Source: Raillietiella orientalis
Lineage: Eukaryota
DNA: 64,000 nucleotides
Direction: 5' to 3'
Assembly: GCA_036172245.1 (NCBI GenBank)
Contig: JAYWIR010000011.1
Span: 3,038,001-3,102,000, forward strand
The notes under the pieces were generated by a model. That model ran no database searches. It worked only from the letters and a program-made list of their open reading frames with translations, and was not told where the DNA came from. Below, one piece after another: positions 1-63,700 of the stretch. The stretch's first letter is position 1. Each line of letters begins with the position of its first letter. The position numbers and the translations under genes were made by a program.

Positions 1-2469
1 CCGTGACGAAGCCGTCCAGGAAGGCGTTCCTCTCAGTGCCTTCGTTGAGGAGCAGCATCAGCAGTTGCTCTACGCTCACGCTCTCTAGGGACGTCCGGAA
101 GCAGCCGAACTTCCCTCCGGCCCAGGAGTTCGACGTCCAGTAGTTACATCCTGTCGTCGAGCGGACGGAGGGGATGAACTCGAAGGCGCGGACCCACTCG
201 CAGAGGTGCATCAGGATGAGGACACCTGGAAGGAGGCGCGCCGTGAGGATCCCCCGGGGGAATCGCTGTGGCGGGCAGCGGCGCAGGCACGACTTCTCGA
301 GGCCTCCCCTCCTCCCCTTCTGGAAACCCAATGTCCAGGAGCGGATGATCCCACCCGTTCCTTCAGAGACGCCTCTGGAATCTCAGGGAAAGGGGAAGGA
401 GAGAGAACAGGCGAACGAAGAAGCAGGTCTCCTCGCTTCCTCTGGGAAGAAGCACTTTGACCTTCCATCGAAGCTAAGGAAGACACCGCCGGACGAGGGA
501 CCGAACGGAGTCCAGGAGCTGCGGCAGAAACGAGCGGAACTCTCCCTTCCCACTCCTGCATCCCTCCTCCTGCTCGTCCCTCTCTGTAGAAGAAGGGCCG
601 GAGGCTCGCGCGCGGGCGGGAGGGGGAGAAGCGCTCTTGAAATACGAAGAGGGCGTGGTGAGTGCGGAGAGTCGCACGCGGCCGTGTCCGCCTTGGAGGT
701 CGAGAATGCACGGCGTCAGCAGCAGGGGGGAGGGTGGGGACTTCAGCTAGCCTCCGGCAGCACTCGACCACCTCTTTTCTCCTTCCTCTTTCCTTTCCTC
801 CCTCTTCTCGATCCGACTTTCGGGAGCTCGAGGGTCCTTCGTTTCCAGTTGCGGGGAGAACAGAAGGCCCGTGAGCCTCCAGGAAGGCGCGCGCGCTCCT
901 GACGGACGGGAGGTGCACCACCTCGCTGCCAGCGCCGCCTCCGCCGCACGCAGCGAAGTACCGTAAAACTCGATGGAGGGGAGGCGCAGCCCTGGTGCTA
1001 TCTTCCCGAGCTCCTCCTCCTCACCCAAAAGACTCCCGACCTTCCATGCGAAGAAAGGGTCCAGGAAGTGCAGTGCCGCGTCGGGGAACTCGCGCTCGAG
1101 AGTCCGATAGGCCTCCAGGCATCTGCGCAGAGACCGGCTGTCCTAGAAGAGCATCTGGGGGAACAAACTTTCCAGTGGGCATTCCCCCACCCACATCTGG
1201 ACCTCATCTGCAGAAAAGGGGCAGCAGGTTGGCGCGCTCTCACGGTCTCTTTCCGAGCTGGGAGTGCGGCGACACTGCGTGACCTCTTTTTCCCCTTTCT
1301 CCTCTTCTCCCATTTCGAACTACCAGGAGACCAACATCAGCAGGATTGTCATCTTCCCCTCTCCATGTCTTCCTTCTTCTTCGAAGGCGATCTGGAGCCG
1401 GATCTCACGGAGAGAAGAGAGGGGAACAAGGTGTGGAACCGGGGAACTGCGAGGAGAAGGCGCGAGCCATGAGCAGCGAGAGGGTGGCTTCTTGGAACTC
1501 GCAAGATGGTTGGACGGACACCCAGGGGCCTACTGCATCCCGCTCACCCCTCTCCGGAAAAGACAAAGGCAGAGTGGAGAGGCAAAGGATGGACTGAGAC
1601 TCGTTGACCTTGGTCAGAGTGGGGAGAAGAGGGTGGACGCTGACTGGGTCTCCTGTACTCCCGTCAGAGTGGGAGGAGAGCAGGAAGAGGCTCGCGATCC
1701 ACTCGCCTTTCAGGCAAGAGGATCACCTTCGGAGTCCGGAGGCGGGGAGCCAGTTCGTACCTGGCTCAGGTCACTTTGGTCTGTCGGGAGGGCGAACACC
1801 AGCAGCGAAGCGTTCCCATAGACGGCTCTGTCCCGCGACCACATCCTCCGGAAGCCAGGAAGCAGAGCGTTCATCAACCTGAACGTCGTTTTGCTTCCCA
1901 CGTCGCGCTCGTGGTTGGCCACTGGGTGGTCGCCGAAACGGAGGACCACGTCATGGGAGTCTGGAAGCGGTTCCCACTGCGTGTGTTTGCGAGCCTCCCC
2001 TTGCCTCCCTCTCCCGCTGGTGCGGGCTGGAAGAGAGGAGACTCAACGCACCTATGAAGGCGCCGTTGAGGGCGCCTCGCATGGCGGATGAGCCCGTCAC
2101 CACGGCGCAGCTGTTAAAAGGCTTGAGACCCAGGGGAGCTCCTTGGGAGAGCCAGGTGCCTCCCGCTGCCTCCGAGCGCTTCCGCCCAGCCTCGTGGGCA
2201 CTCAGTACGACGCTCTTGAGGGCGCAGACGATCTGCTCCCGGACCGCTGAATTGGGATGAGAGTCACCGAGCAGCCTCCGGTGGAACTCTAGCAGTAGCG
2301 ACTCCATCAGCGTGGATCCCTTGACTCTTTCAGGAGCTCCCCAAAGATCCCTGTACTCCAGGCCGGTCCACTGGACCACGAAGAGGAACAGTGCGGCCAC
2401 AAGCACCAGGGAGAGGAAGCAGCGTTTCTTGGAGATCCTCAGGCACGAGTTGAACGCTGCTCTCCCCAT
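1..2469 (-). CDS. GT29 sialyltransferase, ST6Gal-like; exons 2469-2052, 1960-1761, 1142-962, 225-<1 (3' end outside window)
   Basis: GT-AG splicing joins four exons in frame without stops. Type II TM segment (FLSLVLVAALFLFVV), sialylmotif L (SCAVVTGSSAMRGALNGAFIDSHDVVLRFGDHPVANHERDVGSKTTFRLMN), motif S (LPSIEFYGVLILMHLCEWVRAFEFIPS), motif III-like CNYW and C-terminal LNEGT..FLDG, colinear with ST6Gal1 as recalled. Confidence 0.88.
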
Positions 2470-3751
2470 CCTACAGCACCTCCTGACCGGTATGAGATGC
2501 CAACGACGACTGGAAGGATGAGGCAGGGTAGGGAAAAAACGATCTCCCTTTCGGTGCGAAAAGAGCAACGGGAGATCACCTGGAGGGACGAGAAGGCGTT
2601 CTGACGATGCCCGGGAGACAATGTCGTGGAAAGGAGGGCAGGGACGAGGAGGAGAAGACAGGGAGGAAGAAATGGAAGCCCACGGAGGAGGGGAGCGAGG
2701 TGCCTCGTTGGCGTTTGAAACGGGAGATCCCCTACCTACCTGGTCCGCGTTGCTTGGGCTGCCTACCGCGAATGGACGTCGCACTGCTTGCGCCTCGGAA
2801 GTCTGGCACCGCATCCGCTGCCGAAGCGGATGGGCATCGTCTTGGAAGAGTGCGGCTTCCACCCGCACCGAGCGATGATCTCAGCAGCGGCAGAGGCGGT
2901 GCATCGCGTGACAGCCTCCTCCCGCTTCTCTCCCTCCGTTCCTTCCCCTCCAGGGGAGAGGGGGGGGGGGAGAGAAGGTGAAGCCGTGGCGGCAGTGCGG
3001 GCCTGCGGGTTTCCCGGGGAGGCTCCGCACGCGACACACGTCCCCTCCGCCGAGCGTTCGCGCTCCGGGTGGTCGGCGCTGCTCTGCGACCCAGGGAGCC
3101 TGCCACTCTCCGTCCGCCGGCGCCAAGCTGGAGGGAGCAGGCCGGAGCCCACCCAGCGCCACGCGGCGTCCCTGTAGAAGGGAAGAAGGATGAGGATGCA
3201 GGGAGATGCTGAGGGCTGGGGACGCCCGCCGGCGGCGTCCCGGGATCTCCGGCATCTGTGCAGACGCGCGCAGCCAGAGCGGCAACTCCGCATGCGCGAG
3301 ACACGACACAGCGGCCTCCTCTTCCACGACTTGGCGCTCGCATCCTCCGCCTTCCCGGTGGCTTCCCGCATCTCCACGGTTCCCTTCTGAGGCACGGGGT
3401 CGGACGGGACCGAAACGTCCACACAGAGCGACTTGCGGCTCCTCCAGCGTCCGAGCGGCAGGTCTCGCGCGGGTCAGAAGGGACCATCGGAACGAAGCTC
3501 TTTCCTTCCCTCCTTCCTCTTCCTCCTCTTACTTTTCTTCTTTGACTTGTTCTGCCACATGCCGGAACGTCGATTGTCTGCTTCCTTTTCAAGGATCCCT
3601 GAGTAATCCGCGTGAAGGCTGGTCACTCAGGGAACAAATGCGATGGCGCCTCCAGTCCGATGGCGGCGCGTCCCAGGCCTCGCGAGAATACAGCTGCTGG
3701 ATCTCGGATCCTCGGTTTTCCCTTGATCCAGACTCCACCTTCCCAGCGTTT

Positions 3752-6752: not shown

Positions 6753-6885
6753 AGGTCAACTACTAGTTCGGAAGTGGAGGAGAGGCTTCGTCTACAAAGT
6801 GGACAGACAGCTCTCCTCCCGAGGATGTGCGGAAGGTGGATCTCACTTTGCATTTGCCTTTCAGTCCTCGGGTAATGGGGAGTAG

Positions 6886-7034
6886 TGGGTCAATCCTGGA
6901 GGTGCTGCAATACCGAGTCAACCCGCAACAGGAGAAGAGCAGGCTCCAAGCATCCCGTCCACTTCCCCAAAAGTAGTTTAATATACTGGCCATCAGATAG
7001 TTGGCGTATCAGATATTAAGCTAATAAGAATAGA
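6886..7034 (-). ncRNA. U2: U2 snRNA, 5'-truncated (starts at about nt 39); pseudogene or element-disrupted copy
   Basis: TCTATTCTTATTAGCTTAATATCTGATACG...AGTATATTAAA...GGTATTGCAGCACCTCCAGG matches U2 stems IIa to IV; first 38 nt (branch-pairing GTAGTA) absent. Confidence 0.92.
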
Positions 7035-7600
7035 TTTATTTCTTTAAAGAGGAACTTATAAAAATAACAGGGATGGCTCTTCGCCATCTTCCAGTCTTCT
7101 TTTCCATCTCAAGCCTTACGATTGCTGCTGCTTTATAGTTGTGTCGTAGCCATTCACCTGCTGCTGCAGCCTTCTCCTTCCACCACATTCTTGCACCTTG
7201 TAGTCCAGCCGTTGACCCAATCGATGTGTCTCGGCATGACGTTACCAGTCCAGCATCAAGTCCTCGATCCGCACTCGGGATTGCTACGTGGTAAAGCACG
7301 AGAAGTTCGTCCCGGTGGCAGGCCACTGCTCCATACCCCTTCTCCAGCCGCCTGCAGGTCTGCGTTCCGGATCCCGGAACGGCTGGTAGATGCGGCGAGG
7401 ACACCGTGGTTCCTGTCTTTCGAGGGTGGGGAGAGGGGAGAACGAGTTCCCGGAGATCCTTTTTCGTCATTTTGGACTTCGCTCGTACGCTTCGATTTTT
7501 TTTTTCCGCAGTTCGCCGTACCCCATGAGCAAATCGTCCAATGATTTTTTCCGCAGTATCAGAAGAGTCACGTCTTGTGCCAGGGGTCGCCGCTGGCAGT
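7035..7600 (-). mobile_element. Retroelement 3' tail joined to the U2 target site (Keno- or Utopia-like; clade unresolved)
   Basis: Ends ...AAAGAAATAAA directly before U2 nt 39; upstream coding similarity weak; 5' limit approximate. Confidence 0.5.
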
Positions 7601-9659: not shown

Positions 9660-11697
9660 CCGAGTGGGCGGACGCGACCCGTTCTGCCCTGCAGCCCGGA
9701 GAATGGAGGCACTCCCGGGACGCCCTCTTTCTCTTCCCCACTTCACTACCGCCACTCTCCTCCCTGCAAGGAGGAAAGAGAGGATATGGACAGGCCCTGC
9801 ACTTCTTTGGGGACCTCGCCTTCTCGGCTCTAGGGAGGACTATCATCCTGGTATACCGGGGCATTTACTACGTAAAGTAATGAAAATACATTTTTGCAGT
9901 AGAACCGTTGGTTCTACCACGCGCAGTGTATCTGCCGAAGAGCGGTGCACAGACCGGCGAGGTTCGCCTCGGCAGCGTGGGGGAAGGGAAAACAAAAATA
10001 CCAAAAAAATAAACAAACAAAACTGGGAAGGGTGAATTTTACATGGGGAGGGGGCCACAGTACGCTGCTAGGCGTCCTCTGCATCCTGCACAAGATGCTG
10101 ACAAGTTCCGTCTGTATAGAGCTCAGATGGGGTCATCTCGAGGAGGTCCTCAGGAAGATTCGCGTCCAGTGTATGGCGTTTCTACCATTCTGGTCTCTCC
10201 TTGAGTTCCAGGCTGCCACGATTTTGCGGATGCAGCAGAAGGACGAGACTGGCGGCAGTGCGGCACGCCTAAAGAGGCGCTTCCAAATGTCCCTGGTGCC
10301 GTCAGACGGGATTCCTAGGATCGTAGCGAGGAGATCCCAAAGGAGTCGGAGGGAAGCACAGTCCAAAAGCAGGTGCGGAAGGGTGTCTCCTTCCCGAACC
10401 TGTCGCAGTCTGAGCATCCGCGCCCCCCCGTCTCCAGTGATGAAGGCATGCTTTGCATATGATTCCCCCATGCAATACCAGCAACGCCGACTCCTGTCAC
10501 TCGATGGGGAGGGTTGCACTGTTCCAGCACTCTGGAGGCCACTTCACCTCCTCCAGAGGGATACAAGCAGTTTTTCTCAGTGTGCAAGTCCGTGGGGTGG
10601 CACACTCGGGGTCGCAGCGTCCGTTACTTTCCGAGTTGTCCACTCCCCAAGAAGTTTCGTCTTTGCTGCTATGCTGCAAATAACTTTCCGCCTTACCGGG
10701 ATTACACTGTCCCTTGCATTCCTTAGGGAGAGCAGCACTGAAGTCGGATGGATGAGGCTCATCGCATCTTTTGCGGGTTGGGGATTATCTCCTCCAACGA
10801 CTTGCGAGTGTTGACGCCCCGCTGTAGGCAGGCGTACCCCGCCTCGCTCGCGCCGTGGATCTTTCCTCAGGCGAAGACTGACTCCTGAAGCCAAGCAGTG
10901 CAGTTCGCGCGGGGGGGTGGGGCAGGAGATCCAGGTGTTCTCCTCCACCAGGGCAACCATCTAGCGGAGTTGGTATCCGCAACGCTTCAGCAATCTCTCA
11001 TGAGCGACAAGGAGAAATGTGAGTCCCTCGCAGCCGGTTGCGTTCTTCTCGAGGAGCCGTGCTGGTGTGCACCAGGGCGTTGTCCATAGTCTCGCCACGA
11101 GGACGAGTCTTCTAACTTGCCGTTCTGGATCGCCATCTCAACCTTTTGGAGACGGTCGGACCAGGCTTCTGCTGGGCAGAAGTCCCCCAACGGAACGCCA
11201 AAGTACTTGAAGTACCTGCCCGTGGGGATCTTCAAGCAAATCCAGTTCGGCCGCCTGGAGCACGCCGCACCGACAGGCACTACGGACGACTTCGTCCTGT
11301 CTACCTCAAGTCCGGTCCCGCGACCGAGCAACTCGAAGAAGCGCTCGAGTGCAGACGCAAGAGTGGACATGGGGAGCAGCTGCAGAAGATGGTCTTCATA
11401 GGCCGACACGGCTGGTGTGCCGGGACACGAGCTTGGCAGGGTTGGCAAAGTCTCCCTGTATGCTCTTAGCACCAACTCAAAATAGACGCTAAAGGGCAGG
11501 GGGCTTATGCTATCACCCTGCCTTACGCCGAACTGAACGTGTATGGAGTACCTGTTCACCGCCCCCTGCCTGCGAATAGGCAATCCATACACGTGCCGGC
11601 TGATAAAACAGATGCTAATAAGCGCTAAGTGCCAGAAGGAGCTCAGATTGGCCAGGAAGACGGCCAGGAATCCCATGCCTCAGTCGAAAGCTTTGCT

Positions 11698-11877
11698 TTT
11701 TTCTGTTTTTGTTTATTCCCCCTTCCCCCTGCTGCCGTGATGGACCGTACCGGTCTGCGAACCGGTGACCCGGCAGGCTCTGTGTTTCTTCGCGCGTGGC
11801 TGGAGCACCGGTCCAGCCACAGCACGTCTTTGTAGAAGTTTGTATTAATAAACGCCCCGGCGAAATCCGGGTGAAAA
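11698..11877 (+). mobile_element. 3'-UTR-only LINE copy C with 14 bp TSD
   Basis: TCGAAAGCTTTGCT at 11684-11697 and 11878-11891; inserted antisense into the KAFD codons of copy B. Confidence 0.9.
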
Positions 11878-13309
11878 TCGAAAGCTTTGCTCAAATAGAC
11901 CGCAACCGCAAGGGCCCAGGAGCGTCTGATCCTTGGTGACCTTCCCCTTCCTGGTCAGAGGAGAATCCAGGACTCTCATGATCCCTTGGCACAACTCGCT
12001 GTTGCAAATGCCACCATGTGCTCGCGAGGAGCAGGTTCGCCTCCATGACTCTTCCGCCGTACGTCTGCTCCGGACCGATCACGGATCCGGCCACCTGTCC
12101 CAGCCGCTCCACCCACAGTTTGGTAGGCATCTTGGCGTCCACGTTCACCACAGTGATCGGTCACCAGTTGCCAACGTTGCGCAAGTCTCCTGTTTTGGGT
12201 AGGAGACGTACTCTTGCTGACCAGAACGAGACGGGTACCTCGCCCCGTTCACGGATCAGAGTGCATAGCCGATGCATCAAGGGAGCAAGCTCTGCCGCGA
12301 AGACTTGGTAGAACTCCGCAGGCAGGCCGTCTTCTCCTGGTACCTTCCGCCTCTTGAGCTTTCCGAGAGGAGCAGTGAAGGGCTCTTCGAGGCTTCTTCG
12401 TTCCTCCTCCCCTAACAGTGACGCGCCCTCTGGCAGCAAACGCTGCGCAGAGTCGCACTCTGGAAGTACCCTTGCGTACAGAAAGGATGAAACTGCGCTT
12501 CTTCCTCTTCTTGCTGGTGAGGACCGCTGGGGATGTTTCTTGGCACTCCCGCAGGCACCGGATCGAGGAGTCACTCCGCCTGACGCTTTTAGAGCGGCAG
12601 GTGGAAGCAGGAGGAAGGGGTACCCTCCCCTCTGAGAAGACTCCATGGGGAGAGGGTTCCTACGATGCCAACCTGCCGCGGACTGTCTGGAGGAGCGTGC
12701 GCAGGGAGACTGTTCAGCTCTCTGGACGCCGGAAACGAAAGTTTCCTTGCCGATGCCTTGCGGAGCAGAGCAGCTCTCCGCTCCTTCCTCAGCGGAGAAG
12801 GGCTCCGCCCCTTCCTTCGTATTGGATGGTTCTCAAAATCCCGGCGAGTGAAGAGCGAGTTCCGACTTCCCCCTACCTCCCAAGATGGAGACGCTTTCCA
12901 GGACGGATTGAGAGAGCCCTGGAGGCATTTCCCGGTACGAAAGGCAGGGTTCCCGGCTCCGTGCCTGTCCCGGGGAAGGCTGCTGGAAGGACATCATGAT
13001 CCTCTGTTCCCGAGGGGAAAACGAGGAGTCCCTTCCGCCTGCCAGCCCTCGCTATGGGAGGAGGATCCTCTCTCCCCTGGCCTTCTTCACGAGGTGCCTT
13101 CCCGGTCGCTGGACGAGGAGAACCTCGCGGTCCGAATGGTTCTGCCTCAAGGTCGTATCCCCCATGCCCCTCCTCGTTCCTCCACGGATTTCCTGAACAG
13201 GAGAATGGTCTCAGGGGGAGCATTTTTCTGCTCCCAGAAGGAGGCCGGCTTGCGACACAGCGCGCGACGAGCTGGAGGAAGCCATGACAACGCCGAGGTC
13301 CAGAGACGA

Positions 13310-14594
13310 TTGAAACCCGGTTGCGCCGGGACGTTTATTCTTACGAACAAACCTCTATAAACTGTGACTGGACCAGTAGTCCAGCCACACCCTAGATACT
13401 GTCAGCCTGCCGGGCCCCCGGTGCGCAGACCGGTGCGGTCGACCTCGGAAGCAGAGGGGAGGGGGCACGAAACAAAAAGAAAACAAAAAATAAACAAAAA
13501 CTGGGGAGGGAACGGGAAGGGCTCATTGTCTGCTGGGAGGGTCCGTCATCCTCTGGAGGATGCCGGCAAGCTGTTGCTGGATGGTGGATGTCAGATGGGG
13601 CCATCGCGTCGCCATCCTCAGGAAGCGGGCGGCGTACACGGTGGCATCCCTGTCTCTGGATCCTCCCGTCGCTTTGCTCCATGCCGCGACGATCCCGCGT
13701 AGGCAGCACAGGGCTGCAAGCGAGGACGCTGGCGGCAGAGCGTCGCCGACGAATAGGGGTCGCAAAGCGTCTCTGGGGTTGCCTCCGGGGATTCCCAGGG
13801 CCGCAGCAAAGCGTTCCCACAGGGGCTGGAGGGCAACACAATCCACTAACAGATGGGGAGGTATTCCCTCTCCCCACACCTGACACAATTGGGGTTGACA
13901 CTTCCCCGCGTCACTGCCGACTGTTGCCACTTCATGAGGAGGGTGCGAGTGTCCATAAGCACCAAGGGCCACTTGAGATGTTCCTCCGGAACTTCCAGTA
14001 GCTCACCCCAGCGCTAGAGTCCATGTGGGGTGATACTCGGGGTCGCAGCGTTCGTGAGCTGGCCCGTTCTCCATTCCCCGATCCTTCGCTCCGTACCGGA
14101 GCTCTTAATGGTAACCTCCCATTCTGCCGCGATTCGCTTCCCAGATGCTCCCGGAGGGTAGGCAGTACCGCAGCAAGGGAGGTTCTTCCTGCCCACGCTC
14201 TTCTTCGAGGATCTTCGACAATTTCTCGGAGCGTGCGGTGGGCGTGCGGCCCGAACAGAGATGTGCGTGTTGCGGGCTTTGCTCCTGAGTCATCGCCCAC
14301 GTGCGAACGGTTTCCTGCAGCCAGGTAGTACCGTTCGCGGGGCACACGAAGATCAATCCCGTGTTGTTCTTCATGAGTTTGGCTGCCCTTCGAAGCTGTA
14401 GTCCGCAGTGGCAGATGGGGCTTCGGAGTGCAAGGTAGGACGAAAGTTCCGCGGTTGCCGGTGGCCTGCTCGACGAAGAGACGTGTAGAGCCTCACCAGG
14501 AGATGCAACAGTTCTTCGCCATAAAGATAATCACCCAGAACTGGAGCTGAAGCTCCAGCTGCTCCAGCGTTAGGAGACCAAGACCGCCGTCCCG
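13310..14594 (-). mobile_element. 5'-truncated L1/Tx1-like LINE copy D with 20 bp TSD
   Basis: ACGCCGAGGTCCAGAGACGA at 13290-13309 and 14595-14614; RDGGLGL start, PHLLVDC..LW, family 3' UTR. Confidence 0.9.
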
Positions 14595-16208: not shown

Positions 16209-17080
16209 CGCCCAGTGAAGCCGGGGCGTTTATTTGATGCAAAAGTAAACACTTGCAAAGATTGTCGTTGGAACTGGTGGCCCAACCACGCCCATTCCAG
16301 CGAAAGTCTGAAGGGTTACCGGTTCGCAGACCGGTGAGGTCCACCGCGGTAGCAGAGGGGAGAGGCCAACAAAAAAAAAAGGAAATAAAAATAAATAAAT
16401 AAATAAACTTTGGGGTGTGTGGAATGGTTTTATGGTCAGCTGGGGACGGTTCTCCGCATCCATTAGAGGATGCCTGCAAGCTCTTGCTGGATATTGCTGT
16501 CCAGGTGGGGCCATTTCGTTGCCGTTCTCATGAAGCGGATGGCGAAGTGGATATGGAACTCCTGTCGCTCGGTTCTCCTCTTGCGGTGCTCCAGGCAGCG
16601 ATGACGATCCCGTGTAGGCAGCAGGAGGCTACCAGCCAGACTTCCGACCGAAGTGCGTCGTGTAGGAGGAGGGGAGGTCGTAAGGCGTTCCTGGAGTTGC
16701 TGCCGGGGGTTCCTGGTGTCGCGGCAAAGCATTTCCAGAGGGGTTGGAGGACAACACAAGCCACAAGCAGGTGCGGTAGGGATTCCCTCTTCCCGTAGTC
16801 AGCTACGGGAAGAGGGAATCCCGTTGGGGACCGCACACCTTCAGGTCCAGTCATCCAGTCATGACTGCGGACATTGCACGGGAAGTCCCAGTACAGCAAT
16901 TGCGACGCCGAGTTCTGCCACTTCAGGGGAAGCGTGGAGCTGTCCACAAACAATGGAGGAATTTCTGAGTTTTTAGGAAAATCCATCCAGCGACGAATCT
17001 CTTTGGGGAGAGTAACGGGGATACGTGGGTCAGCCAGTGGACTCTTCTCTTGGGCTCTTGGCGAGGCGAACCGCGTCAAG
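16209..17080 (-). mobile_element. 5'-truncated L1/Tx1-like LINE copy E
   Basis: ESLPHLLVACVVLQPLW; nearly identical to copy F over about 500 bp; family 3' UTR ending AATAAACGCCCCGG. Confidence 0.85.
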
Positions 17081-18325: not shown

Positions 18326-19005
18326 AGGACTTTGATGAAGAAAAATAGAAAAAAAAAGAAAGGAAAGGTTAAATAAAGAAAATGGACAGCATGAATTCCA
18401 AATGAAAGAAATCGTGGTTTGTTGCAGTTGTGGTCGGATTGGAACGGAGACATGCGGTTCGTTGCCACGAAGCGGCGGCTTTCAGTGGCTCTTCAGGAAC
18501 CTGCACTTGGCAGGGAGGATTCAACCAGAGGAGAAAGGACCTTGGAGGAGAAGAGGGCGTCTTTGATGCCTTGGAGGGTTTCTCCGTTCTTTTCAGTTCC
18601 AGAAATACCTAGCAAACGCTCCCATCGGGCATCCTCAGGCACCACTACCACCACCACCCTCTGGACAGCAAGCAGATGGGAGGCTGCTGAAGTCAGGTGG
18701 TCTTCCCGATGGGCTGTCCTCACCGAGAGATTGCTTTGGCACAGCAGCCGCTTCTCTGTGTTTCCTGCGTGGCACCCAAACACGGTGCAGCCCTCCCCCC
18801 CCTTCCCCCCCAAAAAACCCTGAAAAAGCGGCGAGTCAAGGACGGCGGTCACCGACAGAGATCGGCGTCCCCCCCCCCCTCCAGTACGGAGTGGAGGAAT
18901 CGTTCCTTTTTTTGGGTTGGCTAAGAACTAAAAAAGCCGTTCGCCTAGGGGCTCACGACGAAGCTCTTTGATGCTATCCCACGTCACCAGGAGGTGCATG
19001 TTGAC

Positions 19006-19652
19006 TCTTCAAGTTAGAAGGCACCCCAGGAGGGAACCATCCTATGGATCCAGGAAGGCCTCGGAGGAAGGAGTCCATTCCTCTTACTCTTAGAGGGAAC
19101 CTCTTCCTTGCTCCCTATGGAGAAATCTTCCGATTCGTGGGGTCCGCTCCTCGTTTCTTCTCCGGAGGGAACCCGCAAAGGAACCGCTCCTTGTTTCCTC
19201 GTCCTCTGAAGAGAACCCTGAAGGGATGCTTCCCAGTTTCTCTGAAGGGCCGTCCGTCCACCCCCCTCTAAGGGAGCAACCCGCTTCTTGACACTCTGGA
19301 GAGGTACCAGTGCACCAGCTCCATGGTACGAGATCGAGGGTTCCCCCTCCCTCCAAGAAGGGGAGACTACCCATTTCCACCACCGGATGGGAAACACCAA
19401 AAGAATGGGGCTCTTGGTTCCTGGAAGAACCACGGAGAGTCAACTTCCAATCCCGACCGGTCATGGGGCATCCAGGGGTTTCCGGCTTCCTTCAGCGCAC
19501 CCGAAGCCAACCAGCGCCATCTTGCAGGAGGATTCGAACCCCACGACGCACCCCTATTTCTCGGCGTCTATCCTTACCCGGGCGGGATCGAACCCGCAAC
19601 GTTTGGTGTCGCGCGCGCGGGAGACCGAGGTAACGCGTCAGTCAACGCAGGC
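19006..19652 (-). mobile_element. tRNA-derived SINE with two B-boxes, copy 2
   Basis: GGTTCGATCCC (19594-19584) and GGTTCGAATCC (19540-19530); shared body and tandem subrepeats. Confidence 0.78.
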
Positions 19653-32100: not shown

Positions 32101-32689
32101 TGCCTTGAGCTGCGTTCTGGTTTCCCTTTCTCTTTCACGCCATCATCTTCTTCCGGTCTTCCAACGGAGGCGGAAAAGAGCTCACACGAGCGAAATGGAA
32201 ACCTTGGTCAGAACTATTGAATCACAAGAGAGAATTTTTCAACGAACCGGATGCTGCATCCGGCGACGAGCCACGTCACAGGGGAGGAAGCAGCTCCAGC
32301 GAGCCTCTGAGACAAATGATACCAGATGAGACGCGCGTGTACAAGAGTTGCCAGAGTCTACCAACACCAAGCAATCATCCGCGAAGAAATCAGATCGCCT
32401 ATCCACTGGGAAAGGGGAGCGGTGCCCGCCGAGACTTCCTTGATTGCACCAACGACCTTGTTGGGAATCCGAAAGGCTGCAGCAGCAGCGATCTCTCGCT
32501 GAAGTAGCTCTCCGAACCGGTGACTGCATCACATCCCGCGCTTGATTTGACTAGTTACGTTCAGATGGTGCTGCTGAGATGCGCGACGTGCGAGCTGACC
32601 GCCCTTGATGCTTGCCTCGGGGAAGCTTTTCACTTTCCGTTTTCCCTGTTCCGTGACACAGAAAGCTCGAATGTCATCTCGGGGTCAAC

Positions 32690-33270
32690 TCTTCGGTTTA
32701 GAGGGCTACCCCGGAGGGAACTTCCCACGAATCCAGGAAGGCGACGTAGGAAGGACCTTGTTCCTCTTACGCTTGGGAGGAAACCCGAAGGGAATCTTTC
32801 CCTTTTTCCCTCCGGAGGGACCCCCAGAGGAGGACCACTCCTTCTCCGGAGGGCACCTGCAAGGGAACCACTCTTGGTTTCCCCCTCCTCTGAAGAGAAC
32901 CCCGAAGGAAGCAGCACGTTTGTTGACGCTCTGGAGAAGTATCAATCCTCCAGCTCCATTGTACGCGATGGAAGATCCCCTTCGAGGAAGGGACAGCTCC
33001 ATTTTCGCAACCGTAGGGGACTGCTGAATAAAACCGGTTCTCCATGATTCCTGGAAGAACCCCTCGAGGGTGTCGACTTCCAATCCCGGTCAGTCAACGA
33101 GGCATCCGGATCCCGGCTGCTTCCACCAGTGCCGCATCCGAGGCTCGTGGGCCAACCAGCGTCATCCTGCAGGAGGGGGAGGGTACTCGAAACCCACGAC
33201 GCGCCCCCTCGTTCTCGGTGCCGATCCTTCCCCGGGCGGGATTCGAACCCGCGACGATTGGTACCACGTG
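32690..33270 (-). mobile_element. tRNA-derived SINE with two B-boxes, copy 3
   Basis: GGTTCGAATCCC and GGTTTCGAGTACC motifs, GGGATTGGAAGTCGAC core and tandem subrepeats. Confidence 0.75.
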
Positions 33271-37070: not shown

Positions 37071-39447
37071 TTTAAAAAAAAAAGAGGGGTTCGTAACGTT
37101 GTGAGATGGGAGAAGCATCTCTCTCACCTTACATGAAAAGAAAATCATCTAGTTATTAAAATTCGACGTTTCAAGTTCTAGTGATCTTTTTCCCTAAGAT
37201 AACACTGCTTGCATCCGTAACACGTACATTAGATGACGATATTAGAAAACAAACTCTTTGATGATTTCGCCCGCTTCGGTGGTTCATTTTAACAGGAAGT
37301 TCCTGGCCTGGTAGCTCTCTGGTTCGTACCATGCTTTGAAAAAAAGTGGAAGGAGAAAAAAAAGATTCGGAACATACCGTGGGAGGGATCCGTAGGGAGA
37401 TCAAGGGAACGAAATCAGAAATGGGATCAGGACCCATCAGCTTCGTTTGACTGACCTTTGATTCACTAATGGCCGTGGGATCGGAGTAAAACGTTTTCTT
37501 TAAGGCACATCACTGCTGGTGAGGGATATGTGGGATGTAAATTTTAGAGGTTAGGTTGAGATTTGAGTTTTTTTTTTGTTTTATTTTTAAACGAGTCAAT
37601 CAGATTTTTATGTGATGACATGGAGGTATTATCTTTAGAATTTCATGAAAAACAACTTGTAAGGAGTGGATGATGCTTTTGCAATTTTTTATGGTTTCTT
37701 TGCATTTGGCTTTACATATACTTTATTTTCAAATGAGATAATCAACATTTATTTCGCAGTATACGTATATGTACATTAACTATTATTTAATTAAATTTTC
37801 TATTTAACACCTGATATTTGGTGTAGCATTTATAATAGCAACTTGGAAGTTTAGAAAATATGCTTTGAAAAATTTAAAACCCTAAATGTTTCGATTGATA
37901 ATAAATAACTAACAATCTATAATATGGTAAGGATGTCTGTGTTTAATACAAAGGTGAAAAGCGAATACGCGTCTATTAATCAAAAGGAGATGAGTTCATT
38001 TTTTTTTTTATTCCTGAAAATGTTTCCTACTAGTTGTATGGGAACGCTTTGAAGTTCATATAAAAATCGAACTGCACAGTTCAGGAAGAACCTTTTGTTC
38101 CCAGCAGGGAGTTAATCGCTTAATTACATTCATCACTTTGCTCAGTTACCTTTATACGCCACTTAAAAGCAGGATGGTGGGAAAACGAAGATCCCAGCAG
38201 TTATCATGAAATTGGTGTGATCCAGAAATGGGGCCGGCCCTTAATTGCATGAATGTGCATCAAGCAGTCTTCGTGCGAACAATACATACCGAGGCTGATT
38301 CAGGAGTTTTAGCACAAATTAGGGTAGAAGGGGCAAACTGAACATTCGAGAAAGGTGGCTTCGTGGTAGGGGAGAAAGTTTCAAGAAAGTTGCCATGATT
38401 TGCTTTTGAAAGTACGGTGAATGCAGGGAGGGGCAGGTTATCTACATTTAAAAACCACATTGCTCCAGATAATAGCAGATGAAGAGTGAGTCGCTTGGGT
38501 TGGCACCCATGCTTGATAAGCGAGCTGCAAGTTTTTAGATCTACTATCAAGACAATCAGTACAAGACAAAACCTATAAGATTTTGAACACGCTGAAAACC
38601 GAAAATTTGTAAGAAAAAAATAAAATAAAATAAAATGTAATCCTTTGGGAAAGAAAAAAAAAGCAGCGTGAAGACGCCGCCTTTTGTGCACAGAGGTGCT
38701 CATTGGACTGCACTCCGTGTTGAGAATTTCGAACGAAGCCGGCACGCAAAAATTGGGGTTCCTTGAACTTTTCTGTTCTGTTCAGATTAACTCTGTGGTT
38801 CTCTACGCTTTGTTCTGAATTCCCAGGCACCTTCCTTCCGTCCGCCCTATCCGTAATTGAGGGCGGCCTCATTGGGCTGCATGGAAAAAAATCATTGCTT
38901 GCCCCTCACCCTTATTTAAAAACGAATGCTCGCGGCACCATCTTCATGACCAAGGCCGTGTCGCTGCACAGTATCGCGGTTCCAATGTGTCCACCATGAA
39001 CAACGAAACACTAAAAAGGAAAATATGAAATATGTTTGTAATTTATACTTGCATTTGTGTCCACGTTCTTTACAACCACAGTGGATACCGAGAACGTCGG
39101 ACTTCTTCCGACTTTGGTTAGAGTTGTGGATCCTGCGACCCTTGAAAGCAGTGAGCACCCTACCACGAATAAGTAGCAAGGGGATCATGAGTTTATCCCG
39201 TTTCGTGGCCTGGTGGGCTGGTGTTGTACGTGTCCCTTACGGAAATCCTCTGTACCTGGACGAAAAAAGTTTCCGTGACACCGTGCATCTTTTTTTCCGC
39301 AAAGGGGACTGCAACTTTGAAAGGTTGCCGAATCGCGGCGCAGTTTGCTGATTCTGACCGATACACCATCGAATAGAGCAGCAATTATTTGCTGCGACTC
39401 TGTGCTGATTGCAGTCCAGATATTAATGTGAAAACTCTTGCTTTCAG

Positions 39448-40440
39448 ATTGTTTCGGGAGCATCAAGAAATCCCAAAGAAGCAGTGCTGTGCATTTTGCT
39501 ATTCCATACTATGACCATACAGTGCGCTGATGATTCCCTCAATCTCGTTGGTTATTCAGTGAATGTCCTGAAAGAGTTTGGCATCCTAAGAAACAAAATT
39601 CGTGTGTTTCCATCAGTGATTAATGAATCGGTTGTCGATGAGTCGGAAAAAATCATCCATGTGGCTCCGGAGGTTAAAGTATTCCAAGACTCCCTGGATG
39701 GCAATTTTCATATTGATTTGTGTGATAGCACACGAGACTTGCTGGACAAATACTTTGAGCACATTAAGATGGAAGGTGTTAATCAGTCTTGGAAAGCCTT
39801 TGCCATTGACTACCAAAGCTCCAAGCTCGAACTGCAGTTTGGACTCGATAGACGATACTTCAATGCAAATTATGCTTTCATTCTGGTGCGAATGTATAAA
39901 CCGAAACGCCGTTACGAGCTGCCTGCCTTCTTACCAATGGTGAACGTATTCGATGATTATATCACCTACAGCAATAAAACTTCCGCCAAGTTGACCCTAG
40001 AAAAGTTTGGAACTCATGTTATACAGACTGCCGTAATTGGAGACATTCTATATCAATTATACGTGTACCACAGTGAGCAGTATGGGATAATCAAAGCAGC
40101 ATTCGCAGGAAATAAATATGAAAGCGCTGGTTGGCGTCAGTTCTTCACCCCGAGATATACTCTGGCTATTGGAAGGCTGCGCCTTCTGAGTAATAGTCCC
40201 CATTTTAGCAATCTGACAAAGTATTTGACTGTTCCTTTGCTCTGGTTCCAAAGCTATGAAAGCATTTTCCAACTCATGGAAAGGACTGACTTGTTGGAAA
40301 AATTCGAGAAACTTCCTGGAGAAGCTATCATTGGCCTTCACATGACTGAAATCTCACGTCTTGTACTTGATGATGATAAACGAAAGTGGTTTAGCAACAT
40401 CCTCCACAACCTCCTGCGTCTCTATGAATTCAATGCTTAG
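39448..40440 (+). CDS. tsl: Torso-like MACPF protein (main exon; start probably in an upstream exon)
   Basis: Hydrophobic leader, GYSVNVLKEFGIL...RVFP, DGNFHIDLCD...LLDKYF, WKAF, FILVR, MACPF signature FGTHVI...GDILYQ; TTTCAG acceptor at 39447. Confidence 0.8.
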   Translation: MVSGASRNPKEAVLCILLFHTMTIQCADDSLNLVGYSVNVLKEFGILRNKIRVFPSVINESVVDESEKIIHVAPEVKVFQDSLDGNFHIDLCDSTRDLLDKYFEHIKMEGVNQSWKAFAIDYQSSKLELQFGLDRRYFNANYAFILVRMYKPKRRYELPAFLPMVNVFDDYITYSNKTSAKLTLEKFGTHVIQTAVIGDILYQLYVYHSEQYGIIKAAFAGNKYESAGWRQFFTPRYTLAIGRLRLLSNSPHFSNLTKYLTVPLLWFQSYESIFQLMERTDLLEKFEKLPGEAIIGLHMTEISRLVLDDDKRKWFSNILHNLLRLYEFNA

Positions 40441-46632: not shown

Positions 46633-46742
46633 ATGCATGAGAACATTTTGAGCTGTTTAATATGAAATAAAGATATTTTAGTCATGATGGAGTATTTTCT
46701 GAGATTCCTTAATAACTATGTTGCAGGCCTAAATTAGGATTA

Positions 46743-48475
46743 ATGCAAGACTTATATAATGAAGGTGCCCCTGTGGGGCTGTTGCAATTGAATGATTGCA
46801 AGGCTGGAATGGATGGTCTTGACAAGGAGCACATCAACAAAATCATACAAAGTGCATCCTTGGGCTCTCGATATTTCCAGCATCAAGAACTGTGTCAAAA
46901 ACGATTGAACGAGCGTATCAGTAAAATGTTAGCACATAAAGCACAACTGAAAACAAGTGATATTAAAGAAGCAACTCTTGCAGTAAGTCCAAAAACACAT
47001 GTCCCCACCTTTCTATGTGCTCTAGGTAGATCAGTTGGTAAAGAAACTTGAAAAACGACGCCAGACACACCATGTAATTGTTCATGTAGATATGGATGCA
47101 TTTTATGCAGCAGTAGAAATGCAGGACAATCCTGCACTGAGGTATAACATATATGTGGCTATTGTCATCTGATGTGGTTTGTAATTAATGTCAGAGATGT
47201 TCCTATGGCTGTTGGCAGCAAATCCATGCTCAGTACATCAAACTATGCTGCAAGAAAGTTTGGAGTACGGGCTGCCATGCCAGGTTTTATAGGTCTGCGC
47301 CTTTGCCCAAATCTAATCATTGTTCCACCCAACTTTGAAAAATACACCCGTATTAGCAGGAAGATTCGACATATTTTCCGTTTATACGATCCTAATTTTT
47401 GTCCACTATCACTGGATGAAGCCTATTTGGACATAACAGCTTACATGGACCAGCATAATATTCTACAGCCAGATGAAATAGTAACGGAGATCCGTAACAA
47501 GATTTATGAATGCACGCAATTAACTTGTAGTGCTGGTAAGTCTTTCTCGAGATGAGAACGAAATAATAATACCCTTTGTTGGTGATAGGCATTGCTTGCA
47601 ATACTCTATTGGCTAAAATCTGTTCAGATAAGAATAAGCCAAATGGGCAGTTTTGCTTGCCTGCAGACACGAAGTCCATAAGTGATTTCTTAGCTGATTT
47701 ACCAATTCGAAAAGTTCCTGGTATAGGCAAGGTGACAGAGCAGCTGTTGCAAGCACTTAATATAAGTACATGTGCTCATCTGTGGGAAAACAGATACTGG
47801 CTCTACTTGTTATTTTCAAATGGAACTTTCACTCATTTGTTAAAGATTGCAATGGGAATTGCTGGAGTTGATGTTGCTAGCTGGAACCAACAAGAAAGAA
47901 AAAGCATTGGTGTTGAACGTACATTTCATGACTGCCATCGAGCAGAACATTTGGAATCTATATGTAGAGAGTTATGTATACAACTGGCTCAGGAGATGCA
48001 AGATGATCATATCATGGGTCATGCTGTTGTAATCAAGTTGAAAACTAGTACATTTGAGATCAAAACTAAAATCCGCCATTTATCTGCACCCACAAACAGT
48101 GCTGAGCAAATTTTCAAAGGTGCATGGGAATCACTAAAACAGCAACTCCATCAAAAAAAATGGAAGCTGCAACTAAGACTTCTGGGAGTTCGAATGTGTA
48201 ACCTCACTTATGCCAAAGATGCTTCAATGGCAAATCACACAATTGCAAACATGTTTTGCATCCAACATGAACACAAAAGTTCAGACAGTAGTTCCAGCAG
48301 TGACTTCATCTGTCCTGCATGCAATCAATATAAGACGGATAGTTTACTTGAACTTAACAATCATTTAGATCTCTGCTTAAACCAATCTCTTATTCAAGAA
48401 TCACCTGCAGAAGATTTTCGCTCAGCAATTTCTAGAGCAAAACAACAAAGAACCCTAACGTATTATTTTAAATGA
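46743..48475 (+). CDS. POLK: DNA polymerase kappa; exons 46743-46982, 47026-47141, 47195-47535, 47589-48475
   Basis: N-clasp KAGMDGLDKEHINKII, HVDMDAFYAAVE, STSNYAARKFGVRAAMPG, SLDEAYLD, UBZ CPAC..NHLDLC, C-terminal PIP-like QRTLTYYF. Confidence 0.96.
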
Positions 48476-52431: not shown

Positions 52432-52797
52432 TATATCGATTTCTCCGGGGACTTAGGATCGACTGGGGACCGTGCTCAAAGGCTGTTCTCATGGAACCCT
52501 TCTCCACATCAGACCACCAGGATCTCACTGGAGTATTTGCTACTACCACCAAGATCTGCGCCGACGGCGGCTCCAAGCGAGCTCGCGCCCAAACCCTTCT
52601 GCGCGCACCGTCGCGACTCTCCTACTCTCCGGAACCTGCCGTCCTCCGGAACGCGTCCGGAAGACAGGAACGGCTCTGTCCCGGCATTTGGCTATAGGCT
52701 CGACGCTTGAGTGCCATCTATTCTCAGGGATAGTTGCTTCGGCAGGTGAGTCGTTACACACTCCTTAGCGGATTCCGACATCCATGGCCACCGTCCT
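52432..52797 (-). rRNA. Orphan 28S rRNA fragment (about 365 bp, pseudogene)
   Basis: AGGACGGTGGCCATGGA.GTCGGAATCCGCTAAGGAGTGTGTAACGACTCACCTGCCGAA, GCAGATCTTGGTGGTAGTAGCAAATA, GTGGAGAAGGGTTCCATG are conserved LSU segments. Confidence 0.95.
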
Positions 52798-53920
52798 CCC
52801 AACGCCATCTCTCCCTCCCTTTATTCTCCCTTCTGCCCCCACTCCATAGCATACCCCAAGACAATCACTGCCTAGTGCCTAGTGGAAAAGCACACGAAGA
52901 GACAAAGACAAAAGGATTTTACCGAAGGAGCGTTCGTGTTCGACATGACTTTGCACTTGTTAGTTGTCCTGATAAAATAAATTATAAAAGAAAAATAAAT
53001 TCACCCCACTGGGATTCGAGCAGGGTAAAAACAATGGTAGGATTTATCTCAAATTTTATTAACATAATACTTTATTGTAGTGCCATGACTAACATGGAAG
53101 TGGGAATTCATAGACTTACTTAAACATGTCAAATGTGTTTATGTCCAGATTTCAATTTGCAGAATAAATGGGATGCTGCAGCTATAAATGCTGCTATAAA
53201 TACTCCTTTGACTCTTGTACATTATTAAATGCAGTATATGTGTTTGCACATGCTGGTCATATTCAAAAGAAACCTTTTTAAGTAGAAATATGTGAATTTT
53301 GGTCATCACAAATCCGAAGTGTTAATGGCAGATTACTGAATAGGCCTGATTAAGTGATCTAATTCCAAACTAAAATCGAAAACTATTTGCTTGACAGAAT
53401 TGCATGATATGAAATGCAAAGCACGAAGAAAAACATCACGAATCTTTGAAGAGATGATTTGGAGGATTGATACATTTTTAATAGCATATCAGAATGACAA
53501 ATAATTTTAAAAGAGGTTGAAATATTCACATAAGTACTCAGTCTGACTTTGAAATAGTAATACAAATTTCTCAATATCTCCATATAAAACTCCATTCATT
53601 CTTTACACTATTTTTTGAATTCTTAGAAACTTACATAATCAAAAAAAAAACAAAGGGATAACAGGATAGTACCTCGATCATAAAATCACACATGCTTCAC
53701 AGCATTAAATTCTTCTCATAAATGATGAATTACTTTAAATTAAACCCCATATCAGTATTGCATTCACTATAACACTCATTACTCTTGATGGATTAATGGA
53801 CTCAAACTCTTGATCGTGCTTTAAAAACCACATTTCTAAATAGCAAGGATTTCAGTTTCTAAATATGTGAGAAATCTATATAACTTTTCTAAATGTGTAC
53901 TCTTAAGTACACATCTAAAT

Positions 53921-60981: not shown

Positions 60982-63700
60982 TTAATCATCATCTTGCTCA
61001 ACACCTCTATCAACATCCTCTGCCTGAAAAAAAATGACAAATATTAACCTTGGTTTCAGCACAATGCATGCAATTTCAAAGCATTACATGAAGCAAGGTG
61101 TAATTGGTAATCTGCCAACTAGTTTTGGATACAAGCAAATACATGCTATGCATTTGGAAGCTTAATTTAGTAGCTCACACAATAGTAGCCTGCAATTAGT
61201 CAATACGAGCATGACATGGCAGCAAAATATCTTCCACACAGTCAAGAGCATTATAGCATTATTATCAATGCTGCTGTTTCTTTGGATAACTACCTGGTTC
61301 TCATGAAGTGTCTCAACAATCACCAAACCATTATCAGAAACTTCTGTTTTTGAAGTAGATGAAGGATTTTCTTGGCTTATATCCTGTGAGTTTTTCATGT
61401 CATCTGTAAGAGTTTCTACCTGCAGAGGATCTAAACTTTCTGTACTGAGAATGTCACTCAATGCATCATCTTGCTTATTTACCCCTGAATTTATATTTTG
61501 CAAACTGAAAGCATCAAGTTTGGAGGAATCAGCTTTCCCCAGATGAAGGGAGGACAAATCCTCTTGTTCAGGACACGAGTTTTCATTTTTTGATTCCTCC
61601 TCAATGAGGCTTTCATAATGTTCTTCCAATTTATCTGGCTTGACATCTAATGTTTGCACAGCATCATGCGCTTTTGCTAGATCAGAATCCTCTGCTATGG
61701 TTTCATCATCAGGAACACAGATCTCTTTGCTATTCAATGCATCAGGCATATCAACTTGCTCTCTAACATCAAGTTTATCTGAGGTACTGGTGTCTTCTGT
61801 ACTCTCACAAGCACTGTCTTCTTCTCTTGCATCAGCTGTTTCTGCATCCAGAAGCTTAATTTCCCCCACATTAAACTGCACGTCTGTTTTGCCTTCACTA
61901 TCCAAACCATCTAAAACCTCTTCTCTGCTAACAGATTCAAGAGGCTCATTTTCAATAATTTCAGGATTCTGTTTGTAGTGTGTTGTAATGTCTTCTTTTG
62001 TTTCCAAGTTCACTTCCACTTTGGCATTTTCTGTATCAGATCCAATGCTTTCTTTTTCAATGAGCAACTGATCTTCCATATGGATTTCCTCTTCAGCATT
62101 TGGTAATCCGGTATCACTCACCTCCTCCTCATCTAATGTTCTATCATGGCTGTTTTCAATCTCTGTAGCATCTGGCAAAGAAACTAATTCTTCAACATTC
62201 GACGCATTAATTTGCTCTGAGGCATTCCGTTCATCTGATTGATCACCATCAATTTCGGAAGACTCATTTGGTAAAGTAATCTTTTCTTCAGCCTCTAGAG
62301 TGCCAATCTCTTCTTTGATGCTTTCTTCAGCATTTGGTTCGTTCTCCTCCTCAAGTTGAAAAATATCTGTTCTGGGATTTGATACAGACGATTTTCCCAT
62401 TCTTCCACTGACTTCCTCATCAACCACATCTGAATCAACCTCCACCTGTGGACTGGGTATTCTTTCCTTTTCAAAAAACAACTGATCTTGAGTGCTGCCT
62501 TCAGGGGTTTCAATGATCATTTGAGGTTCATTAATCTCCTTGGAGGTATCACCAGAAGTGTTTTTATCATCCTCCATCTCCTGTTGCAAGCCTTCAGTTG
62601 AGGAGACACCTACAGTCTCTTTCCTGTCAACACTGCTAAGTTCATTTGCTGAAACATTTTCTTTTTTCAGTGATGCATCATCATCATGTACTTGTTCATG
62701 GTTCTCTTCCAAATGTATTTCAGATGAAAGTTCCGAAATTCCTAGTTTTGACTGACTTTCCTCTTGATGAGAAGGATCATCTTGATCCACATCATGAACT
62801 GACTGATTCTCAGCTCTAGAGGCAGAATCTTCACCATCACACACTAAATGTGGAGTATTTCCCTCTTCTGAATTGCTATTTTCTTCTGCATCACTATCTA
62901 AGACAACATTTTTGTCCTTTTCACTTTGTGCAGCTTCTGCAGAAATTGCATCATTTTCTAGGTGTTTGTGTTGCACTTCCTGTTTTTCTGATTCTTTATC
63001 AGAGAAATCATGATCCTGTTTTTCTGATTCTTTATTGGAGAAATCATGATCCTGTTTTTCTGATTCTTTATCGGAGAAATCATGATCTTCAGAATCTAAA
63101 GGTTGTTTCTCAGTTTCAGATGTCTTACTGACATCATCAGCATTACTAATTGCATTACTGTGTACATCATCCCCACTACAGGGTACATGTTCATTTGTGA
63201 TTTCTTTCGTTTCTTTGATTTCCTGATTATCTGATTTTTCCAAAATTAAACCATTAATTACATTTTCCTGAAATATGTTCATTAAGTATGTACTCAAACA
63301 TGATACCACACATGCTGTATTTAACATTCTTACACATTTATGCATATTTATTTAATAAATTAGTACTACCTTTACACCATTCTGAATGTCTTCTTTTAAT
63401 GATGTGCGTCTATAGTCTTGCAATTTCAGAAAGGTCTCCAATGTATCATTTTCATTGGCTAGATCAAATGCTTCAAAATCCTTAAAATACAAAGATACGA
63501 TACTGTCGCATTTAAAGATTCACATGGGATAAAGCAAAGCATTCATTTCACTGCAAGCAAATGATAGTCCAAGAGTCGGTCTAAAAACTTACACCACAAT
63601 ATAAAGATTCATTAAAAATCTGTGGGGTCATTGGGAAAGTCTCATTGTTTTTCAGGCAGTTTTCCAGCAATAGCTTTTTTTCTTCTTCTCTTCCGGGATC
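60982..63700 (-). CDS. Unknown gene with a about 2 kb acidic, low-complexity exon (about 63268-61294); 5' exons probably continue rightwards
   Basis: Long open E/D/S-rich frame with TTTCAG acceptor and CAG/GTAGTT donor; small flanking exons near 63483-63376 and 61024-60982. Confidence 0.7.
62980..63087 (-). repeat. Coding tandem repeat, 3 x 36 bp (DHDFSDKESEKQ)
   Basis: Three near-identical units. Confidence 0.92.

Follow-up and report, generated by a model that had tools for sequence, protein, structure and literature searches.

A divergent ST6Gal-like gene with glutamate at the catalytic-histidine position, possibly a maintained pseudoenzyme, in a contig of Raillietiella orientalis

The DNA analysed here, referred to as the window, is a 64,000-nucleotide (nt) stretch of Raillietiella orientalis (assembly GCA_036172245.1, contig JAYWIR010000011.1, positions 3,038,001 to 3,102,000 of the forward strand). 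Its first 2,469 bases carry, on the minus strand, a gene of four exons related to the ST6Gal sialyltransferases of family GT29, hereafter the ST6Gal-like gene, whose predicted product has a glutamate where its relatives have their catalytic histidine and has lost most of the residues expected to contact substrate.

When spliced, the four exons yield 1024 nt, corresponding to 341 codons plus one nucleotide, starting from an ATG and free of stops, and are separated by three GT..AG introns (Table 1). The sequence-only reading, made before any database search, had proposed just such a gene of four exons joined in frame over 341 stop-free codons, and this structure was confirmed. The two alternative frames of the spliced sequence contained 15 and 8 stops. 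The guanine-plus-cytosine (GC) content of the spliced coding sequence (CDS) was 0.605, 0.463 and 0.789 at the first, second and third codon positions, respectively, and was flat across both long introns. The transmembrane (TM) anchor reported in the same reading was also found, as the most hydrophobic window of 15 amino acids (aa) within the first 75 residues, with a mean Kyte-Doolittle value of 3.13 and basic residues upstream. Bases 1-3600 had no similarity to the remainder of the window, and the possibility that the ST6Gal-like gene is part of a repeat was ruled out on this basis.

A full-length match (P0009) was used to gather 636 relatives at E<=1e-10, of which the 120 listed ones, arthropod ST6Gal and fish ST6Gal2/2b, served for the comparisons below and to build an ST6Gal family hidden Markov model (HMM). 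Over residues 74-341 the spliced protein aligned with this HMM in a single colinear domain (HMM nodes 160-423 of 437; 153 bits, E 6e-49); together with the GC pattern by codon position, this match is beyond chance. In a six-frame scan of the window with the same HMM (2257 pieces), only the pieces of exons 1, 2 and 4 were found at E<0.01, exon 4 alone reaching E 4.9e-14, followed by that of exon 3 at E 0.58, with no other piece below E 0.9 and none matching within intron 2. Since only the four exon pieces match, a hidden canonical exon and a tandem copy within the window were both ruled out.

Searches with single exons pointed to the same subfamily. Exon 2 matched PF00777 with 34.3 bits (cut-off 23; E 2.2e-8) and, among PDB chains, scored 40.5 bits with ST6Gal1, 18.7 with ST3Gal1 and 14.4 with ST6GalNAc2, with no match to ST8Sia. 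Exon 4 matched ST6Gal1 only among the GT29 chains of the PDB (6qvs, 4js1 and 4mps, E 2e-4 to 4e-4), and neither exon 1 alone nor exon 3 alone had a meaningful Pfam or PDB match. On these alignments the subfamily is ST6Gal rather than ST3Gal, ST6GalNAc or ST8Sia, and the descent from ST6Gal claimed at the outset is supported by the 153-bit colinear match and by the preference of exon 2 for ST6Gal1. When exon 4 was compared by HMMER with 1.84 billion representative proteins, there were nine matches at E<=1e-3 and none at 1e-10, the top one with 45 bits and 36% identity. The ninth, P0012, was dropped as a chance match to a tandem-repeat protein; the eight genuine relatives were 34-38% identical and all had the canonical W-H-P...E-K. 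The two best, P0004 and P0005, retain the catalytic His and have Cys-Cys loops of 13 and 12 residues instead of the usual 10, and may belong to the lineage of the model itself. Word-indexed protein searches (exons 4 and 2, longer proteins) gave no matches, a weak negative given the short queries. Judged by its sequence, the ST6Gal-like gene is a real, intron-containing gene, single-copy within the window, predicted to encode a type II Golgi-type membrane protein of the ST6Gal branch of GT29.

GT29 enzymes use the His of the VS motif as catalytic base (PMC10225777, PMC8433944). Beyond residue 273 the model contains no His, and the residue standing at this position was established by alignment. 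The pattern Cys-loop-Cys-5 residues-His-4 residues-Glu occurred in 124 of 127 relatives. One of the three others was missed only because the last 120 residues were searched, and the remaining two, P0061 and P0115, align an Asn or a gap with the His. The spacing of five residues between the second Cys and the His was invariant (124/124), whereas the Cys-Cys loop, of 10 residues in 121 of the 124, had 11, 12 or 13 residues in one relative each, all three among the closest matches of the model. With its loop of 14 residues, the model requires a four-residue insertion, which phmmer and hmmsearch place just past the His column, pairing the His with Arg310, and which MAFFT and a Cys-anchored alignment place such that the His pairs with Glu314. 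Because the Cys-to-His spacing is fixed and the loop length variable, the extra residues are best placed in the loop, which puts Glu314 at the His position, and we accepted it on this alignment as the predicted occupant of the catalytic-His column. In the 120 relatives this column holds 118 His, one Asn and one gap, and the Glu of the VS motif is retained in the model (Glu319). None of the four alignments (phmmer, hmmsearch, MAFFT or Cys-anchored) puts a His in the catalytic column of the model. The change from CAY to GAG takes two base changes and is thus not a base-call slip. The sequence-only reading had described the His-to-Glu equivalence as gap-free: the Glu at the His position stands, but the alignment needs the four-residue insertion, whose placement depends on the tool.

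The replacements extend well beyond this residue. At the 59 columns at least 95% conserved in the 120 relatives, the model agreed with the family at 31 and differed at 28, four of them gaps. Among the real members, the worst missed 18 (P0061, 347 aa long, in which the His pattern was absent) and 9 (P0115, named as partial), and no other missed more than six. Sialylmotif L retains C121, G136, I139, D140, V145, R147, F148, P152, D159-V-G, T164, R167 and N170, preserving the blocks G..ID and DVG.KTT.R..N, while its Asn and Ala, each present in 120/120 relatives, have become Gly149 and His151. Likewise, sialylmotif S keeps the frame P-S..F.G...C..E..PS.R (P261, S262, F265, G267, C275, E282, P285, S286 and R288), with Ser (119/120) replaced by Ile263 and Gly (120/120) by Glu264. 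The changes of RFN to RFG and of PSSG to PSIE described previously are therefore present, within losses broader than had been claimed. In sialylmotif III, which in GT29 enzymes has His or Tyr and then Tyr right behind the first loop Cys (here Asn294-Tyr295-Trp296-Thr297), the second-position Tyr is retained and the first position is Asn, as it also is in the canonical relative P0005, instead of the His of 118/120 relatives; WDP and the Q of NSQ are likewise replaced. Four of the five family-invariant Cys columns were matched directly (C82, C121, C275 and C293) and the fifth through C308, four residues along and beside the loop insertion, in agreement with the reported retention of the structural cysteines.

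Active-site residues were taken from the human ST6Gal1 list in a simulation study citing crystal structures (PMC5663928), all of whose residue numbers are reproduced by adding 88 to the chain index; Tyr275 was left unmapped. Twelve of the 14 mapped residues are replaced in the model, the two kept being Phe211 (Phe148) and Asn233 (Asn170). The replacements are Ser189 to Gly126, Ala190 to Ser127, Asn212 to Gly149, Gln235 to Leu172, Trp257 to Phe195, Pro259 to Leu197, Tyr354 (His in the family) to Asn294, Ala368 to Ser312, Tyr369 to Leu313, His370 to Glu314, Leu372 to Val316 and Lys376 to Gln320. Conserved columns were lost more often in the active site (7/9) than elsewhere (17/46; Fisher p 0.03). 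A GC-biased drift in amino-acid composition was ruled out as the cause of the replacements, with seven changed invariants going toward G/A/R/P and six away, and a G/A/R/P content (0.29) within the family range of 0.15-0.31.

The divergence of the ST6Gal-like gene raises the question of whether it evolved under selection or in decay. In a tree joining the model to 40 relatives, picked from the 120 as named arthropod and fish sequences, the model had an end branch of 6.34 substitutions per column, about 30 times the median of 0.19, and its best identity to any of the 40 rows was 30%. The tree puts the model among arthropods, a placement made unreliable by its long branch. A second gene of the window, encoding DNA polymerase kappa (POLK), matched human POLK (7nv0) with 208.8 bits overall and 185 bits in the core domain, with both zinc-finger motifs; the strength of this match suggests that the acceleration may be specific to the ST6Gal-like gene and not genome-wide.

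Neutral decay was simulated from the last 341 residues of five canonical members, with the codon usage of the window and intron base frequencies, in 40 replicates each. The profile score fell from 508 bits to the 153 bits of the model at about 0.3-0.4 substitutions per site, where 1/200 and 0/200 replicates, respectively, were still free of stops, indels and splice sites being ignored. Because neutral decay to the divergence of the model almost never leaves the frame open, most of the divergence took place under selection on the frame, and we infer that the reading frame was held by selection through most of it. The description of the gene as maintained thus finds indirect support in the survival of the frame, in the codon periodicity and in the preferential loss of the active site with the cysteines kept; a brief recent pseudogene phase would be compatible with the simulation.

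Taken together, these results lead us to favor, tentatively and from sequence comparison, a long-maintained ST6Gal-derived pseudoenzyme of the secretory pathway that is not a sialyltransferase. Under this explanation, the ST6Gal scaffold (TM anchor, cysteines and the frames of motifs L and S) would have been retained and the catalytic His and most contacts to CMP-sialic acid and galactose replaced, with selection preserving the frame for a use of the protein independent of alpha-2,6-sialyl transfer. The protein might bind glycans, or might associate with or regulate some other enzyme of glycosylation. The sialic acid moiety is bound directly by motifs L, S and III (bioRxiv 10.1101/2020.06.07.138503), and pig ST3Gal1 mutated at His302 lost its activity and became a protein that binds glycans specifically (PMC12274613). 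In the model the catalytic base is replaced, as are the residues contacting phosphate, nucleotide and galactose, and alpha-2,6-sialyl transfer by the predicted protein therefore appears very unlikely.

Several observations weigh against a maintained pseudoenzyme. The ST6Gal-like gene had been called intact, which holds for its open frame within the window and is not assertable past the window edge, beyond which lie the end of the CDS and the last conserved Cys. Stop-free runs are common in the six frames of positions 1-28000 (71 of at least 139 aa and three of at least 300 aa), and open frames being cheap in GC-rich DNA, the case for the gene rests on homology and codon periodicity, not on openness. 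The test for preferential loss of active-site residues reached just p 0.03, on nine columns. The simulation presumes a canonical ancestor and a simple mutation model, and at 0.05 substitutions per site 45/200 of its replicates were still open, so that recent death after long function would be invisible. Finally, the exon 4 search found no orthologue or paralogue with the same changes among the 1.84 billion representatives.

The frequent stop-free runs, the replicates still open at 0.05 substitutions per site and the lack of a relative with the same changes among the 1.84 billion representatives, together with the 28 lost positions and the long end branch, favor a dead or dying gene. This would be an ST6Gal copy specific to the lineage, or else the only orthologue of a lineage that has given up sialylation, freed from constraint, without function and not yet hit by a stop. 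We nevertheless consider it unlikely, since at matching divergence almost no neutral replicate remained open, which means that the bulk of the change was not neutral, and the start codon, the three GT..AG pairs, the five cysteines and the codon periodicity are all intact. Moreover, a long-lived protein without sialylating activity would still have to precede the death of the gene.

A re-tooled transferase, in which Glu314 would act as a carboxylate base, perhaps aided by His151, with a donor other than CMP-Neu5Ac or an acceptor other than Gal, is judged improbable. It would account for a Glu exactly at the base position alongside the conserved Glu319, for the frame maintained according to the simulation, and for the new His151, which lies two residues past the lost Asn of motif L and replaces a family-invariant Ala. 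Also in its favor, Glu is the catalytic base of FUT8, another inverting transferase (PMC8433944), and plant GT29 proteins have been proposed to have moved to Kdo transfer (PMC5811610). Nevertheless, the Asn of RFN, the Ser-Gly of motif S (one of them now Glu), the His/Tyr of motif III and the Lys following the VS Glu are gone, and the loss of these nucleotide- and phosphate-contact positions speaks against binding of any CMP-sugar in the known mode. Furthermore, no family with the same pocket appeared in the exon 4 HMMER search, and His is named as the base in all GT29 enzymes (PMC10225777, PMC8433944). An artefact, whether a wrong gene model, an assembly chimera or substitutions from sequencing errors, is very improbable: the gene is truncated at the window edge and the drop in GC from about 62% in 1-28 kb to 35-40% in 36-64 kb could mark a mis-join, but all four exons follow the family profile colinearly and are joined at canonical splice sites, no alternative exon with canonical motifs was found in the six-frame scan of the window, the changes of His to Glu and of Asn to Gly need two base changes each, the replacements are spread over three exons, and a mis-join tens of kilobases (kb) away would leave the gene itself unaffected.

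The maintained, non-sialylating protein that we favor would be encoded in the GC-rich part of a heterogeneous window. GC content was about 57-62% in positions 1-28000, 32-43% past 36 kb and intermediate between, with CpG observed/expected ratios of 0.87 and 0.68; the shift could be a compartment boundary or a mis-join. The U2 small nuclear RNA (snRNA) gene lies about 4.4 kb upstream of the ATG of the ST6Gal-like gene, and the isolated ribosomal RNA (rRNA) fragment lies in the AT-rich half. The GC-rich half contains dispersed repeats, near which long open reading frames (ORFs) have, by eye, the look of reverse-transcriptase remnants, with zero Pfam matches. The 337-aa ORF had no Pfam or PDB sequence match, and its nearest protein Atlas cluster was MACPF (score 0.97; 1008 members, with Arthropoda the commonest phylum among the 964 with a phylum), followed by 'torso family' (0.94); from these similarities it is probably a Torso-like gene. 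POLK occupies a few large ORFs, matching IMS (E 7e-32), IMS_C and the HHH motif, with an apparent very short intron, judged by eye, between two of them. The probable Torso-like gene, the arrangement of POLK in a few large ORFs and the unreliable tree placement are leads toward an arthropod, and to that extent back the invertebrate source named in the sequence-only reading.

Table 1 Features of the ST6Gal-like gene and of the rest of the window (positions in the window).
Feature	Position	Strand	Description
Exon 1	2052..2469	-	ATG (2469-2467), short cytoplasmic tail, the TM anchor with a short stem behind it and, from C121, the opening half of sialylmotif L; final base is the first base of codon 140
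TM signal-anchor, residues 18-32	2374..2418	-	Most hydrophobic 15-aa stretch among residues 1-75
Intron 1	1961..2051	-	91 nt, GT..AG; interrupts sialylmotif L
Exon 2	1761..1960	-	Second half of sialylmotif L, RFG replacing RFN
Gly149 codon	1932..1934	-	GGC; Asn in 120/120 relatives (human Asn212)
Intron 2	1143..1760	-	618 nt, GT..AG; no match to the family HMM
Exon 3	962..1142	-	Variable region and start of sialylmotif S, PSIE replacing PSSG
Ile263-Glu264 codons	969..974	-	Ser in 119/120 and Gly in 120/120 relatives
Intron 3	226..961	-	736 nt, GT..AG; interrupts sialylmotif S
Exon 4	1..225	-	Open at window edge; remainder of motif S, motif III, Cys-Cys loop, VS region
Motif III position	134..145	-	Asn294-Tyr-Trp-Thr; first position His in 118/120 relatives
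VS-motif position	68..85	-	Glu314 (GAG, 85-83) in the His column, four residues, conserved Glu319 (70-68)
U2 spliceosomal snRNA gene	6880..7074	-	Full length, 78 bits, model 1-192 of 192
Long ORFs	10987..12832		Near the dispersed repeats
Dispersed repeats	13418..13875, 16315..16959, 20994..21644		Copies 72-87% identical
Second repeat pair	19004..19607, 32688..33262		65% identical
337-aa ORF	39427..40440	+	Probably Torso-like
POLK	46716..48475	+	ORFs 47148-47555 and 47570-48475 flank the apparent short intron
Eukaryotic large-subunit rRNA fragment	52707..52824	-	118 bases, model 1214-1332 of 3401, 84 bits
729-aa ORF	61162..63351	-	Uninterrupted; very acidic, Ser/Glu/Asp-rich, short internal repeats, no Pfam match

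The predicted protein shares with arthropod ST6Gal (DSiaT-type) and vertebrate ST6Gal1/ST6Gal2 (CAZy GT29, PF00777) the type II topology and the cysteines, and has motifs L, S, III and VS in the same order and at the same spacing. It differs from them in having Glu314 for the His, in the replacement of the RFN Asn, the motif S Ser-Gly, the motif III His, WDP and the Q of NSQ, in its longer Cys-Cys loop (14 residues against the usual 10), in 28 of the 59 conserved columns, and in an identity of at most 30% to any of the 40 tree rows. Cosmc (C1GALT1C1) is a GT31-derived chaperone without transferase activity, and resembles the protein proposed here in that a paralogue of a glycosyltransferase has been retained to help in the secretory pathway without catalysis of its own; it belongs to another fold family and lineage, and nothing in the model points to a chaperone role.

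Within GT29, the plant and algal sialyltransferase-like proteins have the fold without classical sialylation, with CMP-Kdo proposed as donor, and keep sialylmotifs L, S, III and VS without the family motifs (PMC5811610, PMC5000683), whereas the model belongs to the metazoan ST6Gal branch and has lost key motif residues. An experimental precedent is the H302A variant of pig ST3Gal1, a GT29 scaffold that, with a His removed, loses transfer and behaves as a specific lectin (PMC12274613), the mechanism proposed here for a natural protein. That variant carries a single engineered change of the motif III His, belongs to another GT29 subfamily and keeps its acceptor-binding residues (PMC12274613); in the model both acceptor and donor contacts are replaced, and preservation of the ancestral glycan binding is therefore not expected, unlike in ST3Gal1 H302A. 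No natural GT29 homologue without the catalytic His was found in the literature searched, a limited collection. If merely a decaying copy, the ST6Gal-like gene would be of little interest. Should it prove to be expressed and conserved, it would be nature's equivalent of the lectin made from a sialyltransferase in the laboratory (PMC12274613) and the first pseudoenzyme of the GT29 family; in an arthropod host it would also add a second ST6Gal-derived protein to a group in which Drosophila has one sialyltransferase (PMC13010963). Invertebrates have one st6gal1/2 gene (PMC5000683). A transferase re-tooled around Glu314, if real, would represent a different catalytic apparatus in arthropods of a lineage for which one canonical sialyltransferase is otherwise known.

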